A stretch of 64,000 bases of DNA from NCBI GenBank assembly GCA_964649665.1, contig CAZYPU010000004.1, forward strand, positions 511 through 64,510, given 5' to 3'. The position numbers were made by a program, and so were the translations under genes. The stretch comes from an uncultured Planctomycetia bacterium (GTDB taxonomy: Bacteria; Omnitrophota; Gorgyraeia; JABMRN01; RBG-13-46-9). Under the pieces are notes generated by a model. The model saw nothing but the letters and a program-made list of their open reading frames with translations. It did not search any database and was not told the origin of the DNA. Positions 5,194 through 61,776 of this stretch are shown here, one piece after another (within the stretch, counting starts at the first letter, position 1; every line of letters begins with the position of its first letter).

Positions 5194-6147
5194 ATGTTGC
5201 GAAAAATTGCCGCGTATCTCCTTTTAAGCGTTTGCATTCTCCCGGGAGCGTTTGTTTCGGCTGACACGGTCAGCCTGAAAAGCGGAGAGGGCGTTAGAGG
5301 GAGTATCGTCGAAGAATACAAGGATAGGATTGTTATATCCACTTATGAGGGTGAAAAAGGAATCCTCAAGGAAAATATCCGCGAGATCCTGTATGACCTG
5401 CCCGAGCAGAATCTGGTGAAGCTGGGTGATGCATGTGTGGGCCGCCGCGAATATGAAAAAGCCTATTTTTATTACGAGAAAGCCCATCGCGCCAATTCGT
5501 CGCACCAGATTGCGCGCGATAAGATGAATTATGTAATGGGCTTCCTTTTCCGCAGGCGGGAACAGGACAAGCTGACCGACGTTAAGAGAAGAAGGGATTT
5601 CGATAACTGGCCCCCGCCGCCGGAATCAAAAGAGGACGATTTAGAAAAACAGCTTGAGGATGTTTTCGGGATATGCCTGGACGAGAAAAAAAACCGGATA
5701 GAAATAACGAATGTTCGCAAGCCTTCGATGGCCTTCGCGTCCGGTTTGAGAAGGAACGACGCCCTGATTTCCGTGTGGGGGCGCCTCACGGGTTACATGT
5801 CTATAGAAAGCGTCGCGCGCCTTCTACTGGAGGAGAATTTCGGGGAAGTTAAAATAGGCATCGAACGCGAAATAACGGTGGAAAAGGATGGGTCTTCCGG
5901 CGGGAGTTACACGAATATGTTGGGCGTCAAGCTCGATATGCCCATAGACGGCTTGACCGTTGCCGGCGTGACGCCTGAGGGCAAGGCCGCAAAGGCCGGC
6001 CTCATGAAAGGCGACTTGATTACCGCTGTTTGCGGAGTTTCAACCCGGTATACGCCGCTTAAAAAAGTGATAAAGATGATAGAAAACCGCCGGCGTGATA
6101 CCATAGCGTTTACCGCAAGGCGGGAAGTAACTATTTGGAGGAAATAG
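5194..6147 (+). CDS. secreted TPR/PDZ-domain protein
   Basis: Signal peptide MLRKIAAYLLLSVCILPGAFVSA. TPR-like segment (YEKAYFYYEKAHRAN). PDZ-like GLTVAGVTPEGKAAKAGLMKGDLITAV. Confidence 0.5.
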   Translation: MLRKIAAYLLLSVCILPGAFVSADTVSLKSGEGVRGSIVEEYKDRIVISTYEGEKGILKENIREILYDLPEQNLVKLGDACVGRREYEKAYFYYEKAHRANSSHQIARDKMNYVMGFLFRRREQDKLTDVKRRRDFDNWPPPPESKEDDLEKQLEDVFGICLDEKKNRIEITNVRKPSMAFASGLRRNDALISVWGRLTGYMSIESVARLLLEENFGEVKIGIEREITVEKDGSSGGSYTNMLGVKLDMPIDGLTVAGVTPEGKAAKAGLMKGDLITAVCGVSTRYTPLKKVIKMIENRRRDTIAFTARREVTIWRK

Positions 6148-26633: not shown

Positions 26634-26709
26634 GCTAGCGTAGCTCAGCTGGTAGAGCACCTCACTTGTAATGAGGATGTCGTCAGTTCGACCCTGACCG
26701 CTAGCTCCA
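26634..26709 (+). tRNA. tRNA-Thr (anticodon UGU), CCA encoded
   Basis: GCTAGCGTAGCTCAGCTGGTAGAGCACCTCACTTGTAATGAGGATGTCGTCAGTTCGACCCTGACCGCTAGCTCCA. Starts directly after the nnrD stop codon. Confidence 0.93.
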
Positions 26710-26874
26710 ATTCCGCCTTAGGCGGAATTGATCCTGAAGCAATGAAGAAAATGCGATGAATAAGAGTATTTTCCGTTGCTATCGCAAAAATTAAGGTACT
26801 TCGGAATGGCAGATCCTCCCACAGGTCGGATTTGCGCCATTCATCAGTATCAAGATTTCTCAAAGTGAAATTTT

Positions 26875-26958
26875 GGGGAGATGCCGGAGCAGCTAAACGG
26901 ACCAGACTGTAAATCTGGCGGTCTTTGACCTACGGAGGTGCGAATCCTCCTCTCCCCA
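26875..26958 (+). tRNA. tRNA-Tyr (anticodon GUA), long variable arm
   Basis: GGGGAGATGCCGGAGC...CCAGACTGTAAATCTGG...GGAGGTGCGAATCCTCCTCTCCCCA. Confidence 0.92.
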
Positions 26959-27012
26959 CTCTATAAGGTGCGGCCTCGGAGAAAAAAGTGAGAAAAGATT
27001 TGAGCATGCTCG

Positions 27013-27104
27013 AGGACGAGAGCAGGGAGAAACTCGCGGGCGTAGCCCTTCGCGTGGCTGAGGCCACGCTCAGGACGAGAGCAGGGAGAAACTCGCGGGC
27101 GTAG
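27013..27104 (+). repeat. 33-nt direct repeat (27013-27045 and 27072-27104) that includes the first 10 nt of tRNA-Gly
   Basis: AGGACGAGAGCAGGGAGAAACTCGCGGGCGTAG occurs twice. The copies are separated by the hairpin GCGTGGC-TGAG-GCCACGC. Confidence 0.85.
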
Positions 27105-27165
27105 TTCAATGGTAGAACGGTAGCCTTCCAAGCTACACACGGGGGTTCGATTCCCCCCGCCCGCT
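27095..27165 (+). tRNA. tRNA-Gly (anticodon UCC)
   Basis: GCGGGCGTAGTTCAATGGTAGAACGGTAGCCTTCCAAGCTACACACGGGGGTTCGATTCCCCCCGCCCGCT. Confidence 0.92.
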
Positions 27166-27177
27166 CCGGAATAAATT

Positions 27178-28488
27178 ATGAAAAAAATTAAACTGCAGTA
27201 CAGGGTTACCGTTCTCATAGCGGGGCTGTCCCTCTTATTAATAGTCGTTTTTACCACGATACAGCTTCGCAACCATCTCGAGAGATTGCGCTCCTACAAT
27301 AGGTACCGCGCGCGCGTGGGCACGATCATAGTAAAAACCACTCTTGAGATGATGCTCCGGGCCGTGCCATCCGAAGAGGCGCTCTCCGGTGTATTCGGAG
27401 CCGCGGTAGCGTCGTTTGCCAGAGAGGGTGTGGCCGAGAAGATCTCCATCATGACCCCTGACGGGCAGGCCGTAGCGACAAACGACCCCCTTGTCAAAAA
27501 ATTCGGCGAAACAAAAAAAGACATCGTGGCATACTCGCGGCTCTCAAAAGCCGCCGGTAAAGACGCCTGGTTTTTCTCCGTGATAAATAAGAAAACCCAG
27601 AACATAGATATTTATATACCGCTTAACATAAGCCCGGCCCTCACGTATATCGCCAAACTCTCGTTTTCCATAGGTAATATACGGGAGGCCATGTTCGATA
27701 TACTCGTCCCCGTTACCATAACCTGCGTTTCGATAATAGTCGCCAATATCATCCTGGGATTTATATTGTCGCGCACGGTGGTGCGGCCGATAAATATTCT
27801 GAACATGGCCACCAAAGATATTGCCTCGGGCAATCTCGATTGCAGGGTCGCCATACATACCAACGACGAAATACAGGAGCTGGGGGAGACGTTTAATACC
27901 ATGACTATCGCGCTCAAGAAAATGAAGGACAGGGCCGAGAACGCGAACCCCTTGACCCGCCTTCCCGGCAACAACATGATAAGCGAAGAAGTTGAAAACC
28001 GGATACGAAAAGGCCTCAAGTTCGTGGCCATGCACGCGGACCTGGATAATTTTAAGGCATATAATGACCGCTATGGTATCGCCAGGGGCGACGAGGTCAT
28101 AAAATTCACAAGCGAGGTGCTAAAAAACGCTATAAAAGAAAATGGGAACCGCAGGGACTTCTTAGGTCACGAAGGAGGGGATGACTTTTACGTCATAACG
28201 ACCCCGGATAAGGCCGAGAGCGTCGCGGACAAAATACTCGCTGATTTCGATTCAAAAATAAGGAGCTTTTACACGAAAGATGACCGGGAGGCCGGATGCA
28301 TACACGAAAAAGACAGGAAGGGCGAGATGGTAAAATTCCCATTAATGACGATGTCGCTCGCCGGCATTACAAACCAATTCCGTAAGATCTCCAGCTACGG
28401 AGAGCTTACAAACATCGCCGTAGGGGTTAAGGCGAAAGCGAAAGAGATAAATAAGAGTATCTTTATTCTGGACAGGCGCAAGGCCTGA
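27178..28488 (+). CDS. membrane sensor with HAMP domain and GGDEF-family cyclase domain carrying a GGDDF motif
   Basis: N-terminal TM helix, periplasmic-like segment, second TM helix, then HAMP (RPINILNMATKDIASGNL...). Cyclase domain: LTRLPGNNMI, DLDNFKAYNDRYG, HEGGDDFYV (codons 28174-28188). Confidence 0.75.
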   Translation: MKKIKLQYRVTVLIAGLSLLLIVVFTTIQLRNHLERLRSYNRYRARVGTIIVKTTLEMMLRAVPSEEALSGVFGAAVASFAREGVAEKISIMTPDGQAVATNDPLVKKFGETKKDIVAYSRLSKAAGKDAWFFSVINKKTQNIDIYIPLNISPALTYIAKLSFSIGNIREAMFDILVPVTITCVSIIVANIILGFILSRTVVRPINILNMATKDIASGNLDCRVAIHTNDEIQELGETFNTMTIALKKMKDRAENANPLTRLPGNNMISEEVENRIRKGLKFVAMHADLDNFKAYNDRYGIARGDEVIKFTSEVLKNAIKENGNRRDFLGHEGGDDFYVITTPDKAESVADKILADFDSKIRSFYTKDDREAGCIHEKDRKGEMVKFPLMTMSLAGITNQFRKISSYGELTNIAVGVKAKAKEINKSIFILDRRKA

Positions 28489-28521
28489 ATGTTAAAATAT
28501 CAAAAAGGTAGCATGCCGCTC

Positions 28522-28549
28522 TTGACAATCCCGGCACATAGTATATACT
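28522..28549 (+). promoter_or_regulatory. sigma70-type promoter driving the leader of the secreted repeat protein gene
   Basis: TTGACA (28522-28527), 16 nt spacer, TATACT (28544-28549). Confidence 0.55.
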
Positions 28550-28555
28550 TGTATT

Positions 28556-28783
28556 AGGGGAACGAAAAGGCACACCATCTGAAAGGGTGGGTCCCCTGCT
28601 TCGCTGAATTGCTTACGCGTTCAGCTTCGCAGGGCTCTTTGAAGCCACACGCGAAAGCAATGTGGCGAAGAAGAGGCAAAGCTCAAGAGCCCCGTGCATG
28701 GGGTAGTCAGCTGCCGAGGCTCAGAGAAGCGGACCTGTTCAGACAGACCTATTCATGCAGATGTGTGTGGATAGGTTTTTTTT
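28556..28783 (+). promoter_or_regulatory. ~230-nt structured 5' leader ending in a hairpin plus T8 (riboswitch/attenuator candidate, class unknown)
   Basis: Successive hairpins: GGGGA..TCCCC enclosing a CCATC-TGAAAG-GGTGG hairpin; CTGC-TTC-GCTGAA..TTCAGC-TTC-GCAG; GGCTCTT(T)GA..TCAAGAGCC enclosing GCCACA..TGTGGC; CCCC-GTGCAT-GGGG; ACCTAT..ATAGGT followed by TTTTTTTT (28776-28783). The RBS and start codon follow ~40 nt later. Confidence 0.5.
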
Positions 28784-28833
28784 GCGTGATTATCTAAAGG
28801 TTTTGAAAAGTTTTAAAGTGGAGGATGGCTAAG

Positions 28834-31395
28834 ATGAAGACCCTGATGCGTAAGATGAAGAAAGTCTGCGTACTCATAACCATAGCGGCTTTCGGGTCGC
28901 TTATGCCCGGGGTCGCGGTTTACCCTCAGGAGGACTCCGTAGAAAGGCACATGCAAAACGGCTCACGCGTTATGGCTCCGGGTTGGCTTAACGTCGACAA
29001 TCAGAAGGGCCGGGCCTTTAAGGAGCAAGTCCTGCAAAAGGGAGTTTCCGCCGAAAAGCAAATGAAAAGGATAGGCGCTGACCTTGAAAGAAGCCTTCTC
29101 GAAAGAACCACAGATACAGTTAAGCCGGATCTGAAGAAAAAAACGGCCAAGGTAAGTTCGGCGGCCCCGACAGGCGTCGCAACCTTCGAGACGTTGGTTA
29201 TACAGGCAGATAACGTGATTGTCGAACAGGCCCTGGTCGAAATAGCCGAAGCGGAAGGCATAGAACAAGGCGCCATAGACTATGCCGCATTGACCACGGG
29301 GGACATCGTGTTTACATGGCAAAAAGACGGCGCGATTTATGGGCGCGTGTACGATGACACGGGGGCTATTTCCGGAGATGCGGATGCCGCATTTCAGAGC
29401 GCGCTTTTTACCCCCGGACAGAACGTTGACTATGTGATCCAGGCATTGTATGACGGAGGATTCGTTGTTGGGTATTCCTCATCAAATGACGGGTGGGATT
29501 CATCAACATCCATCTATACGACTTTCTTCAGCAGATTCGATTCTCAAAACAACACGTTTACCGGCTTTTCGGTGGGCGGCGGTTCCGGAAAAATAACTTC
29601 TATAACCGGTTTATCCGACGGGCGTTTCGCGGCGGCATGGGACGGAGGATATTTCGACACCAGCTACTTCAGAATAATAGGCGCGGATAACAACTTCGGA
29701 AGCGAAATATACCTGGGCTCCAGCTACTACCAGTCCAACTACGGATATACGCGCAGCATGCGCCCGCAACTTGTCACATTGACTAATGGCAATATAGCCG
29801 CCGCGTGGTACACAGAGAGCCATTATAACTACCCAATTATCGGCTACAGTTTCAGCGGTTACTATTCCGTATATAATCCTGATAACAATGGCATGCTGTC
29901 CTACACCTCGATAGACGGCTCGTATGGGTTTAGCCCGAACGTAATCTCTCTTTCAAACGGCGGGTTTGCCATTTCGTGGTCTAACGCCAGCGACACAATG
30001 TATTTCCGGACTTTTGACGCTTCGGGCGGTTACGACAGCTCCAGGATAGAGATAGCGAGCTTTCAATATGATTATTACACCACCTCACCCACTGGGTTTG
30101 ATCAACGTTATTGCGCGCCTACCATGGTTGAGCTTTCGAACGGTAAAATCGCGGTTGTTTACGGCAATATAGCGCTTGACGGGTATCGTCTGAGCGTGTA
30201 CGGGGAGGACGGTACATGGATTACCACGGCTGCCAGACTCACTTATTACGAGTGGGACCGGAACTTGCGAGTTCACGCGCTTGAAGGTGATACACTTGCG
30301 ATATCATATGAACATGGGTACGATTCTCCTTGGGCTTATGGCCAGTACAGCGCCACCGGCGAAGTTTTTGGATCAGAGCAAATATTTGCCATGCCCACAG
30401 AGACGCGGACACGCGTCTCGGCCGCCGCGGATTTCGATATGAGAGGCGCCAGCGATACAAGCGCTTTTTCGAGGTTAGATGATGGATATGCCCCGAATTT
30501 ATTTGCCACTCTGTCTTTCGGCAATGAATACGGCGAACCGTTAGGCGCCCGCACGCTTATATCCGCCTTCAGGGGCCTTTTGGAATTGAATAGCGCCGGC
30601 ATGCTGAACGCGGAGGGAATGCCGGATGGCGTGTTGGACCCGGCGCTTCTTGCGGAGCTCTTAGCGGGAGTATTAGAGGAATCAGCGTTTATGGCGTCGA
30701 TGGGTGAGCTGACATCCCAGGAGATGCAAATGGTAATGATGCTGGCAAGTATAATAAATAACCCCACGATCGAACAGCAGGAAATTCTTGACGTATTGGA
30801 AGCGCTTATCAGCCAGGTACAAAAGATGGCAGAAGATACCGGCAGCGCCCCCGAGCTTGAGCAGACTTCGGACGACTTTACCCAGATGGTTGCCGCCGTC
30901 CTTTTGGCCCAGGCCCTGCCGGGACTTCTTAAGGAAGGGGATATGTCGAATGTAAAAGGCATATTTGGCGATCTCGATAGGGAAAAATCCAATATCCTGC
31001 TTCAATACGGACAGCAGGCAAGCAGGTACTACGAGCTTATAGCGGAGGAACTCGCGGCCAATATGACCACACTTCAGATTAAGGGCCTGTTGAAAAAGAA
31101 CATAACGGCAGAAGAGGAGCTGACAAAGCTTCCTTTTGATCAAATAGATGCAATCGTAAAGAAAATACGCAACGCAAAAGACAAGACCATAACCGAAGAG
31201 CGCGTATTAAAGGCAGAGGCAAAATACAGGGAAGAACATCTTATGCCCGCCAAACGGATGCTCGAACAAAATATGAAAACGCTCCTTCAGGGCTTTACCA
31301 AGAAGCTTTTCGGCGTCCTTGACGGCGCGGGCCTTGTGAAGGAGAAGGCGGAACAGGGCAAGCCGGTACTTAACATAGACTTATCGGCGAAATAA
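28834..31395 (+). CDS. secreted protein with beta-propeller-like repeats and an alpha-helical C-terminal region (function unknown)
   Basis: Start placed at ATG 28834 (GGAGG 9 nt upstream); the ORF track starts at 28825. Signal peptide. About 7 degenerate repeats of the form L-[ST]-[ND]-G-x-[FI]-A-[AIV]-x-[WY]. The last ~330 aa are A/E/L/M-rich. Confidence 0.7.
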   Translation: MKTLMRKMKKVCVLITIAAFGSLMPGVAVYPQEDSVERHMQNGSRVMAPGWLNVDNQKGRAFKEQVLQKGVSAEKQMKRIGADLERSLLERTTDTVKPDLKKKTAKVSSAAPTGVATFETLVIQADNVIVEQALVEIAEAEGIEQGAIDYAALTTGDIVFTWQKDGAIYGRVYDDTGAISGDADAAFQSALFTPGQNVDYVIQALYDGGFVVGYSSSNDGWDSSTSIYTTFFSRFDSQNNTFTGFSVGGGSGKITSITGLSDGRFAAAWDGGYFDTSYFRIIGADNNFGSEIYLGSSYYQSNYGYTRSMRPQLVTLTNGNIAAAWYTESHYNYPIIGYSFSGYYSVYNPDNNGMLSYTSIDGSYGFSPNVISLSNGGFAISWSNASDTMYFRTFDASGGYDSSRIEIASFQYDYYTTSPTGFDQRYCAPTMVELSNGKIAVVYGNIALDGYRLSVYGEDGTWITTAARLTYYEWDRNLRVHALEGDTLAISYEHGYDSPWAYGQYSATGEVFGSEQIFAMPTETRTRVSAAADFDMRGASDTSAFSRLDDGYAPNLFATLSFGNEYGEPLGARTLISAFRGLLELNSAGMLNAEGMPDGVLDPALLAELLAGVLEESAFMASMGELTSQEMQMVMMLASIINNPTIEQQEILDVLEALISQVQKMAEDTGSAPELEQTSDDFTQMVAAVLLAQALPGLLKEGDMSNVKGIFGDLDREKSNILLQYGQQASRYYELIAEELAANMTTLQIKGLLKKNITAEEELTKLPFDQIDAIVKKIRNAKDKTITEERVLKAEAKYREEHLMPAKRMLEQNMKTLLQGFTKKLFGVLDGAGLVKEKAEQGKPVLNIDLSAK

Positions 31396-31914: not shown

Positions 31915-32586
31915 ATGCAACTACGCGATATCGTAGTAAGTTACGAAAAGGGAAATTCCATAAACGAGATAGCTTCCGCGTTCGGCCTCTCGACGAGGAA
32001 GATCAGGGGCATATTATCCACTAATAATATAGTCATGCGAAATCACAAAGAAGCCTCATACCTAAAAAACAACAAAGACGGCGACCCGTTCGACATATTG
32101 ACCGAACTTACGCCGGAAGAAGAGCACCTGAAAGCAATGGCGCTCGGGCTTTACCTTACGGAAGGAAACACAAAAAACAAAAATTCCGTACGCTTTTCCA
32201 ATTCGGACCCGGCGCTTGTAAAGATATTCGTTAAATTTTTAAAAGCTGTCTGTGGTGTTGAAAATGACAAGATAAGGATGTCGTTAATCGTGTATCCGGA
32301 TGTCCCGCAAAAAGCGGCAAGGGAGTACTGGGCGAATTTCCTGGGTCTTCCAATAATTCAGTTTACGAAAACAACCGTTTTAAAAAACAGGAGTAACCAC
32401 AGTTCAAAAAGACACTCGGAATTCGGCACCATTACTATATATGTGCACAATACAAAGCTCCTGGGTATCATAAAAGAGTGGGCGCGGGAATATGCCCATA
32501 TAGCTCAGTTGGTAGAGCACATCCATGGTAAGGATGAGGTCGTCGGTTCAACCCCGACTGTGGGCTCCGCTATTAAAAGGAGGTAA
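31915..32586 (+). CDS. HTH plus LAGLIDADG-like (homing-endonuclease-like) protein; the 3' end reads through tRNA-Thr
   Basis: N-terminal HTH ([22 protein letters not shown]). [13 protein letters not shown] followed by [18 protein letters not shown] resembles a single LAGLIDADG motif and core. There is no stop codon before the tRNA at 32494. Confidence 0.45.
32494..32566 (+). tRNA. tRNA-Thr (anticodon GGU)
   Basis: GCCCATATAGCTCAGTTGGTAGAGCACATCCATGGTAAGGATGAGGTCGTCGGTTCAACCCCGACTGTGGGCT. Lies 22 nt upstream of tuf. Confidence 0.92.
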
Positions 32587-32588
32587 AG

Positions 32589-33785
32589 ATGGCTAAAGCA
32601 AAATTTGAACGCACAAAGCCGCACGTAAATGTCGGCACAATAGGGCACATAGATCACGGAAAGACCTGCCTTACGAGCGCCATAACCCAGGTCCTCGCAT
32701 TAAAGGGCCAGTCAACCGCGAAAACCTATGCGGAAATCGCGAAAGGCGGAGCCGTAAGGGATAAGTCAAAGATTCTCACCATAGCGGTCGCGCACGTGGA
32801 ATACGAAACAGAAAAGCGCCATTACGCGCATATCGACTGCCCGGGCCACGCAGACTATATAAAGAACATGATAACGGGAGCGGCCCAGATGGACGGAGCG
32901 ATCCTTGTCGTATCGGCGGCCGACGGCCCGATGCCCCAGACAAGGGAGCACATTCTTCTTGCAAGGCAGGTAAATGTGCCCGCGATAGTAGTATTTTTAA
33001 ACAAGGTAGACCTCGTAGACGACAAGGAGCTGCTTGACCTTGTGGAGCTTGAAGTAAGGGAGCTTCTCACGAAGTACAAGTTCCCGGGAGAGAAAACACC
33101 CGTCGTAAAGGGAAGCGCGCTTAAAGCTATGCAGAAACCCGAAGACGCGGAAGCCGCAAAGCCCATATTCGAGCTCCTGAAAGCGGTAGACGATTTCATC
33201 CCTATCCCAAAAAGAGACATCGACAAACCTTTCTTAATGCCAATCGAAGACGTATTCTCAATCACCGGAAGGGGAACTGTCGGCACGGGCCGCGTGGAAA
33301 GGGGCCAGGTAAAAACGGGGGAAGAGATTGAAATCGTGGGTCTTAAAGACACAAAAAAAAGCATCGTAACAGGCGTTGAGATGTTCAGGAAGATCCTGGA
33401 CTCGGGCCAGGCAGGGGATAATATAGGAGTCCTCTTAAGAGGCGTTGAGAAAAAAGACCTCATGCGCGGACAGGTCCTCGCAAAGCCCGGAACCATAAAA
33501 CCGCATAAAAATTGCAAGGGCGAGGCCTACATCCTGACCAAAGAGGAAGGCGGCCGCCACACGCCGTTTTTTAACGGCTACAGGCCGCAGTTCTACTTCA
33601 GGACCACCGACGTAACCGGATCCGTCACGCTTCCCAAGGATGTCGAAATGGTTATGCCGGGTGACAACGTTACGGTAGAAATAAGCCTCATAGAGCCCAT
33701 CGCTATGGAAAAGGGTCTGAGGTTCGCTATACGCGAAGGCGGCCACACCGTCGGCGCGGGCGTAATAACGGAGATAAACGAGTAA
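32589..33785 (+). CDS. tuf: elongation factor Tu
   Basis: [26 protein letters not shown]. 398 aa. Confidence 0.97.
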
Positions 33786-61540: not shown

Positions 61541-61564
61541 ACAACCGCTCTTTAACATTACGTT

Positions 61565-61729
61565 CTATACAGGTGCCCGTTGAGGGCTTGAAAAGGGAAG
61601 CTCGTTTAAATCGAGCGCGGTCCCGCCGCTGTAATCGGGGACGAAACCACAGTGAGCCACTTATCGCATTTCGCGATTGGGAAGGCGTGGAAGTAGAAGG
61701 ATCCGAGAGTCAGAAGACCTGCCTGTATA
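61565..61729 (+). promoter_or_regulatory. cobalamin (B12) riboswitch aptamer
   Basis: P1 TATACAGG/CCTGTATA. GGTGCC..AAAAGGGAAG. GCGCGGTCCCGCCGCTGTAATCGGGGA (consensus CCCGCCACUGU-like). B12 box GAGTCAGAAGACCTGCC at 61707-61723. Confidence 0.85.
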
Positions 61730-61776
61730 TTAAGGTGTCGCCGGAACACCGCATATAAGGGATGAAGAAAACGGGT

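Follow-up and report, generated by a model that had tools for sequence, protein, structure and literature searches.

A probable c-di-GMP-I riboswitch with an aptamer split by two inserted hairpins upstream of a secreted-protein gene

Riboswitches of the c-di-GMP-I class (GEMM-I; RF01051), such as Vc2 of Vibrio cholerae, contact c-di-GMP, in the Vc2 crystal structures, through positions G20, A47 and C92. Two variants, c-di-GMP-I-GGC (RF03167) and GEMM-Ib, differ at these ligand contacts (A47G or G20A), the cGAMP-sensing GEMM-Ib having A20. The first GEMM hairpin consists of a 2-bp and a 6-bp stem around a 3-nt internal loop, with a GNRA cap; the linker between the hairpins is nearly always AAA, and about 50% of GEMM RNAs are without the tetraloop receptor, which is therefore not obligatory (PMC1950547). 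The hairpins called P1 and P2 in that 2007 paper are named P2 and P3 here. Among regulatory layouts, the pilM leader is of the ON type (PMC1950547), and in the Cd1 OFF switch of Clostridioides difficile the aptamer and the terminator are separate (PMC9262584).

The leader described here spans approximately positions 28557–28783 of the 64,000-nucleotide stretch of DNA that was analysed (the window). It lies downstream of a sigma-70-type promoter and consists of hairpins and a terminator, followed by the ribosome-binding site (RBS) of the gene at 28834. Judged from its sequence, it is probably a transcriptional c-di-GMP-I riboswitch with an insert-split aptamer and a proposed OFF-type mechanism. 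The features of the locus are as follows.

27178–28488, plus strand: gene for a transmembrane HAMP and GGDEF-like protein with a GGDDF motif, a putative diguanylate cyclase (domain matches, homologues)
28490–28512, plus strand: conserved box TGTTAAAATATCAAAAAGGTAGC adjoining the −35 hexamer on its 5′ side (same box in relatives, by eye)
28522–28549, plus strand: sigma-70-type promoter TTGACA-16-TATACT (11 of 12 consensus matches; position kept in L090, L087, L089 and L001)
28557–28564, plus strand: 5′ strand of P1, GGG 28557–28559 and CG 28563–28564 (partner 28715–28722)
28569–28593, plus strand: G20 equivalent (28569), 5′ strand of the 2-bp P2 base (28570–28571), ACA internal loop, P2 stem and GUC strand (covariance model R1, partial RF03167 match)
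28594–28634, plus strand: inserted hairpin B, with a 6-bp outer stem, UUC/UUC internal loop and 7-bp inner stem (two outer-stem pairs change on both sides among the window, L090 and L173)
28635–28675, plus strand: inserted hairpin C, with a 6-bp outer stem, GAA/GAA internal loop, 6-bp inner stem and GAAA-containing loop (double-sided pair changes)
28676–28680, plus strand: 3′ strand of the P2 base (GC 28676–28677) and AAA linker (aligned to GCAAAGC of RF01051)
28680–28712, plus strand: P3, with AGCU/AGCU base, CAA loop, GA/UC, AG bulge (28705–28706), 5-bp distal stem and GUGCAU loop (Rfam alignment; three double-sided pair changes)
28713–28722, plus strand: G28713, C28714 (C92 equivalent) and the P1 3′ strand CGAGGCUC (aligned to gCCgaa of RF01051)
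28733–28742, plus strand: GACCUGUUCA, a tandem near-copy of the terminator 5′ strand (sequence; absent from L090 and L173)
28747–28783, plus strand: intrinsic terminator, 13-bp stem 28747–28776 with a GAUG loop and eight U at 28776–28783 (five pairs change on both sides)
28820–28836, plus strand: RBS GGAGG (28820–28824) and ATG (28834) of the regulated gene (sequence)
28834–31395, plus strand: regulated gene, encoding an 853-residue signal-peptide protein (start 28834; no Pfam match)

Transcription would start at about 28556–28557, and from there five hairpins follow in succession: P2 (28575–28590), B, C, P3 and the terminator stem. The leader folds with a z-score of −2.7, and none of 200 shuffles equals its folding energy. 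The T8 run is 37 nt away from the GGAGG site. An earlier sequence-only reading had described this promoter, about five consecutive hairpins and a terminator stem (ACCUAU..AUAGGU) ending in eight T residues, and had taken the whole for a transcription-attenuating, riboswitch-like leader akin to GEMM-I; the description holds for every listed feature except one junction (see below), and the interpretation is supported in part, though not as to an unknown class. A 62-residue open reading frame within the leader (28609–28797, TTG start) overlies covarying RNA helices and was rejected as spurious. The box at 28490–28512 was also found, by eye, before the homologous promoters in L001 (two copies), L005, L087, L089 and L090. 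Its form is TGTTAAA(C/A)ATA..AAAAAG(T/G)TAGC (L001 3118–3140 and 5760–5782; L005 about 85–107), and it stands at every orthologous or paralogous secreted-protein promoter, even where the leader differs. It is possibly an UP element or a transcription-factor site.

P2 consists of a 6-bp stem with a GAAA tetraloop, and its internal-loop strands are ACA (AAA in GEMM-I, the middle C being the difference) and GUC (28591–28593). The 23-nt P2 pattern GGCANACCATCTGNAAGGNTGGG occurs at more than 119 metagenome loci, nearly all of them canonical c-di-GMP-I aptamers (more than 100 GEMM-I aptamers), of the form ...AAAGGCAAACCAUCUGAAAGGAUGGGACGCAAAGCC...; the P2 of the window is thus a common GEMM-I P2, and the likeness of the first hairpin to GEMM-I proposed from the letters is borne out. 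The ACGCAAAGC junction, which the same reading had judged absent, is in fact present as GGCAAAGC at 28675–28682, shifted 82 nt downstream by hairpins B and C. It is invariant in L090 and L173 and contains the linker as GC-AAA-GC; GGCAAAGCUCAAGAGCCCC, which covers the 2-bp P2 base strand and the linker region, is identical at 19 of 19 positions in L090. Between the GUC strand and the GC strand of the P2 base lie exactly the two hairpins B and C, with zero linker nucleotides. Thus, the aptamer is split by an 82-nt insertion (28594–28675) that enters P2 where the internal-loop strand gives way to the strand of the 2-bp stem, a point of difference from GEMM-I. Given this position, the 2-bp helix must close a four-way junction, and we infer that 28570–28571 pair with 28676–28677 across the insertion, which would complete the first GEMM hairpin with its 2-bp and 6-bp stems, 3-nt internal loop and GNRA cap. 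These pairs never vary in the three long-form sequences, so covariation cannot demonstrate them.

In alignments with the consensus from Rfam and with 52 canonical aptamers, G28569, A28678 and C28714 are the equivalents of G20, A47 and C92 and have the same residue identities. The window shares its fold with RF03167 and GEMM-Ib but keeps the canonical G, A and C; position 28569 is G, not the A of GEMM-Ib. P3, the first base of which is A28680, is shortened and has a stem with an AG bulge and three compensatory pairs. The 11-nt tetraloop receptor is absent from it although the P2 loop is GAAA, and the distal part is a plain 5-bp stem. The receptor is also absent from L090 and is present, as CCUAA..UAUGG, in L094, L197, L114 and L131. 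P1 is weak: its CG/CG pairs are paired in all cells and its 3-bp extension in 87.5% of cells (three sequences).

The Rfam scan that the sequence-only reading had proposed returned no match in the leader region at gathering thresholds, but it did return RF01051 below threshold. This best RF01051 match in the window (28654–28718) scores 23.9 bits (E = 0.013) against a gathering cut-off of 35 bits, and contains GAGGCAAAGC and then P3. At the permissive threshold, a P2 of the RF03167/c-di-GMP-I type was matched at 28560–28604 with 17 bits. The two matches therefore cover one aptamer half each, in the correct order. Other sub-threshold matches were set aside: that to OmrA-B reflects the terminator hairpin only, and those to snoRNAs and miRNAs are noise. 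A covariance model (R1) built from the 52 canonical aptamers, in which P3 covariation is strong, found this locus only in the 64-kb window, again as two halves (27.6 bits, E = 1e-4, for the P2 half, and 12.8 bits). A model spanning the insert was dropped, as cmalign placed inserts in the P2 loop and gave wrong alignments; instead, 28594–28675 was removed in silico and the remainder was compared with a profile HMM of the canonical set (nhmmer). With the insert removed, the window aligns over positions 8–90 of 97 with 44.3 bits. On the same profile, the 5′ half of the window alone scores 26.3 bits, 200 shuffles reach at most 0.6, L114 with its insert removed scores 55.0 and the training set 51–79.5.

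Relatives of the locus behave in the same way. Uninterrupted leaders of the subfamily exceed the RF01051 cut-off (L094, 71.7 bits; L197, 62.7), as do several insertion-bearing aptamers (L095, 44.5; L114, 42.9; L146, 40.7; L155, 38.1), all as full-length model matches. Longer inserts bring the score below it (L173, 34.7; L182, 33.0; L090, 30.3; L126, 27.7; window, 23.9), so that forms with inserts of 48–60 nt pass and the 84–94-nt forms, including the window, fail. Eleven of the 14 insert-bearing loci that were scanned are not called at the gathering cut-off, with L090, L173, L126, L133 and L182 at 26.8–34.7 bits. From its sequence, the leader appears to be a split, receptor-less member of the c-di-GMP-I class, a new structural variant and not a new class.

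The sequence-only reading had envisaged collecting homologous leaders through orthologues of the 28834 gene. As the downstream protein has only two homologues in 5.8 billion proteins, leaders were obtained instead from contigs encoding close relatives of the upstream GGDDF protein. L090, with 80% identity in that protein, has a homologous long-form leader. L001 and L007 share the promoter, leader start and terminator with the window and carry a 115-nt internal deletion (in L001, at 5820–5935, it joins GGCACACCA to the distal P3 hairpin and the terminator is kept). L087 (1640–1700) is cut off after P2, with the RBS directly next, and the leaders of L089 and L091 are different or short (L091 3740–3815 is a short hairpin plus terminator). 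The locus thus evolves fast among close relatives, and the long form is nonetheless shared. Twelve distinct leaders form a subfamily with GGCA[C/U]ACC, a P3 of the type AGCU..GAGCC..GGCAGUCAGYURCCGAAGCU and a conserved terminator; L197 was placed in it by sequence only. One lineage of GEMM-I aptamers (L120, L121, L130 and L174) has long P3 insertions rich in CGUACAGCG-like repeats and a conserved CCGUGG..CCACGU 3′ of the aptamer.

Covariation was assessed with a 62-pair model on three long-form leaders (window, L090 and L173), in which 96.7% of cells are paired, compared with 33–43% when partners are slid by 1–3 columns. Sixteen pairs changed on both sides: two in the outer stem of B, five in the outer stem of C and one in its inner stem, three in P3 and five in the terminator. 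One further candidate, C28573/G28713 in the window versus U/A in L090, was rejected, because other subfamily members combine C with A and 28573 and 28713 consequently do not pair. The leaders of the window and L090 are 77.8% identical, whereas identity is 48% at the four-fold degenerate sites in the neighbouring gene, a difference that points to continuing selection on the long form in its entirety, junction included. The long-form leader is a structure under selection.

This evidence bears on the best-surviving alternative, namely that the leader is a decayed relic of a c-di-GMP-I riboswitch that has lost ligand binding and now acts as a constitutive or otherwise controlled attenuator. The sub-threshold RF01051 score, the lost receptor and the 82-nt interruption are what such a relic might display, and the neighbouring lineages have decayed (L087 ends after P2, L001 has its deletion and L091 only a remnant gene), so that loss of function in the window lineage is conceivable. 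However, the residues at the three ligand contacts are all kept, as are the AAA linker, AG bulge and GNRA loop, and neither the 16 compensatory changes nor the excess of leader identity over neutral sites, with a junction identical at 19 of 19 positions in L090, is what decay would leave. We regard a relic as unlikely.

The insert itself is structured. Folded alone, 28594–28675 forms two hairpins (z = −5.3). Among the window, L090 and L173, the B and C hairpins of which are homologous, the UUC/UUC and GAA/GAA internal loops are constant and the surrounding stems vary. The two loops are complementary to each other. The window alone has complementary terminal loops in B and C as well (10 of 11), and as a consequence all of 28594–28675 can refold as a single long hairpin; the minimum-energy structure of the entire leader in the window takes this form. 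A kissing interaction between the terminal loops was rejected: L090 offers at best 6 bp with two G-U pairs, and in L173 the complementarity is essentially lost (by inspection). Neither B nor C matches an Rfam family. A search with blastn found no other copy of the leader in the window or in any fetched locus, ruling out a mobile repeat (MITE or REP) as the source of the insert.

Insertions at this exact site recur. Of about 112 distinct aptamers with this P2, 17 (about 15%) carry 45–94 nt there, including L114, which has a 60-nt two-hairpin insert. Each of the 17 inserts folds alone into stable adjacent hairpins (z from −3.9 to −8.9), with two terminal hairpins in 15 of the 17. Like the window, these metagenome GEMM-I aptamers (L114, L095, L146, L155, L173, L090 and others) have two or three stable hairpins at the same site, and their insert sequences are unrelated between lineages. 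We did not find this insertion architecture described for GEMM-I aptamers in the literature, and the 2007 GEMM paper makes no mention of it (PMC1950547). The recurrent two-hairpin insertion is a structural variant for which we found no description.

What the hairpins do is a separate matter. It is possible, though we hold it doubtful, that the recurrent insertion, here B and C, is an additional domain with a function and not just an expansion that the RNA tolerates, turning the three-way junction into a five-way one (P1, P2, B, C and P3), possibly as a substitute clamp or a second input, and defining a distinct c-di-GMP riboswitch subclass. In the window lineage, the insert may replace the lost tetraloop–receptor clamp through its UUC and GAA loops, or may add a second regulatory input. 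Another reading is that specificity has changed or that a second input was added: the RNA would respond to another cyclic dinucleotide made by the GGDDF enzyme, or B and C would bind a protein or second ligand. The substitution of GGDDF for GGDEF/GGEEF in 115 of 120 family members would fit this, as would the constant internal loops within covarying stems and the insertions at one site in 17 of about 112 aptamers. Yet G20, A47 and C92 form the canonical c-di-GMP set, the cyclase-like protein keeps its guanine-specifying N and D, the inserts of other lineages are unrelated in sequence, and B and C match no Rfam family, all of which make altered specificity or a second input improbable. The remaining possibility, the 'unknown class' of the sequence-only reading with only a superficial likeness to GEMM-I, has in its favour that nothing in Rfam matches at gathering thresholds, but it is refuted by the insert-free sequence, which aligns with canonical GEMM-I from end to end, and by orthologous leaders (L094, L197 and L114) that are bona fide RF01051 matches above the cut-off, and we give it virtually no weight.

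For the split c-di-GMP-I riboswitch, a mechanism can be proposed. With 28722 as the last aptamer position and 28747 as the first of the terminator, the two do not overlap and could coexist, as in Cd1 (PMC9262584) and in contrast to the pilM layout (PMC1950547). Each P2 strand has a complement in the terminator. For the P2 3′ strand GGGUGGGUC it is the 5′ strand of the terminator, GACCUAUUC (−12.6 kcal/mol, p = 0.02); for the P2 5′ strand CACACCAUCUG it is the terminator loop together with the 3′ strand, CAGAUG.UGUGUG (−12.1 kcal/mol, p = 0.04). Of 10 subfamily leaders, 8 show the latter complementarity at a significant level, compared with 2 of 48 other GEMM-I leaders; in L090 it is not significant. 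From the absence of overlap and the complementarity of both terminator strands to P2 strands, we infer an OFF switch. In the absence of ligand, the emerging terminator 5′ strand would invade the aptamer and pair with the P2 3′ strand (in the window, with the P3 loop too); the P2 5′ strand, once released, would capture the terminator loop and 3′ strand, allowing RNA polymerase to read through. Binding of c-di-GMP, presumably supplied by the adjacent GGDDF cyclase-like protein, would lock P2 and P3, allowing the terminator to form and lowering expression of the secreted-protein gene. The polarity, with c-di-GMP promoting termination, is drawn from thermodynamic predictions and is the weakest part of this account.

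Folding of partial transcripts gives a varied picture. When transcripts are cut just 5′ of the terminator 3′ strand, 6 of 10 relatives have a minimum-energy fold in which the P2 3′ strand is paired to the 5′ strand of the terminator. In the equivalent window transcript, this pairing has a mean ensemble probability of 0.43; at minimum energy, the terminator strand there pairs with the P3 loop (UGCAUG with CAUGCA). The predicted invasion probability is low in L173 and L094. In full-length folds of L114, L131, L211 and L112, the state with P2 and terminator and the cross-paired state differ by about 0.1–3.3 kcal/mol. In Cd1, too, readthrough needs an antiterminator made from part of the aptamer and the terminator 5′ strand (PMC9262584), as predicted for the window; however, the Cd1 antiterminator uses the aptamer 3′ strand, whereas that predicted here uses both P2 strands (plus the P3 loop) in a four-strand exchange. 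In the window, the terminator 5′ strand is doubled at 28733–28756 (GACCUGUUCA-GACA-GACCUAUUCA). The 5′ strand of the terminator is likewise a complement of the P2 3′ strand in unrelated GEMM-I leaders with the same P2 (L211 4250–4290, L095, L146, L112 and L126), and the L211 terminator is approximately a copy of P2 (CCCAUCUGAAAAGAUGGG). P2-based antitermination may be more widespread.

The genes on either side of the leader form a conserved unit with it. The gene upstream had been called a variant cyclase gene, and its product is indeed a HAMP and GGDEF-like protein with a GGDDF motif, a putative cyclase by sequence. With E < 1e-60 as the limit, its family comprises 489 matches, many of which carry the source name Candidatus Omnitrophota, and GGDDF instead of GGDEF/GGEEF is found in 115 of 120 homologues. 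The closest solved structures are diguanylate cyclases, and our own reading of the sequence finds the guanine-specifying N and D residues (FKAYND...RGD). The 853-residue protein has no Pfam or NCBIfam match, and its only two real homologues among 5.8 billion proteins were noted above. Its N-terminal approximately 120 and C-terminal approximately 300 residues are conserved; the centre is hypervariable, with repeats of the form L[ST][ND]G.[FI]A..W (by eye). The position of the leader in the 5′ UTR of a secreted or surface protein gene is shared with GEMM-I. The order GGDDF gene, leader, secreted-protein homologue is kept in nine loci (L087, L090, L001, L091, L131, L173, L116, L114 and L106, wherever the contig is long enough), in which the cyclase-like protein is 61–84% identical to that of the window; a secreted-protein homologue also follows the L094 leader. 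The module of cyclase-like gene, sensor RNA and secreted-protein gene that had been hypothesized is therefore conserved. The secreted-protein gene is tandemly duplicated in L001 (3226–5499 and 6001–8595), and a remnant is found in L091 (3793–4160).

Several other RNA features lie in the window. Three tRNA genes (26634–27165) are located between an NAD(P)H-hydrate dehydratase gene and the GGDDF gene, and a further tRNA (32494–32566) lies just 5′ of tuf (EF-Tu, 32589–33785); the open reading frame 31915–32586 overlaps this tRNA and is probably spurious. A cobalamin riboswitch (RF00174, 113 bits) is found at 61554–61740.

Because of the recurrent insertion inside the aptamer, Rfam misses a subset of c-di-GMP riboswitches, leaving an annotation gap. 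Should the inserted hairpins prove to be a functional domain, the forms that bear them would be a distinct structural subclass of c-di-GMP riboswitches, under-detected by current family models. The leaders also offer a natural test of the structural interruption that the GEMM-I fold tolerates, and the predicted pairings suggest an antiterminator built from P2 strands instead of P1. For the uncultivated bacteria that carry it, the locus points to a conserved three-part c-di-GMP module composed of a GGDDF cyclase-like sensor, a putative riboswitch and a hypervariable secreted protein.
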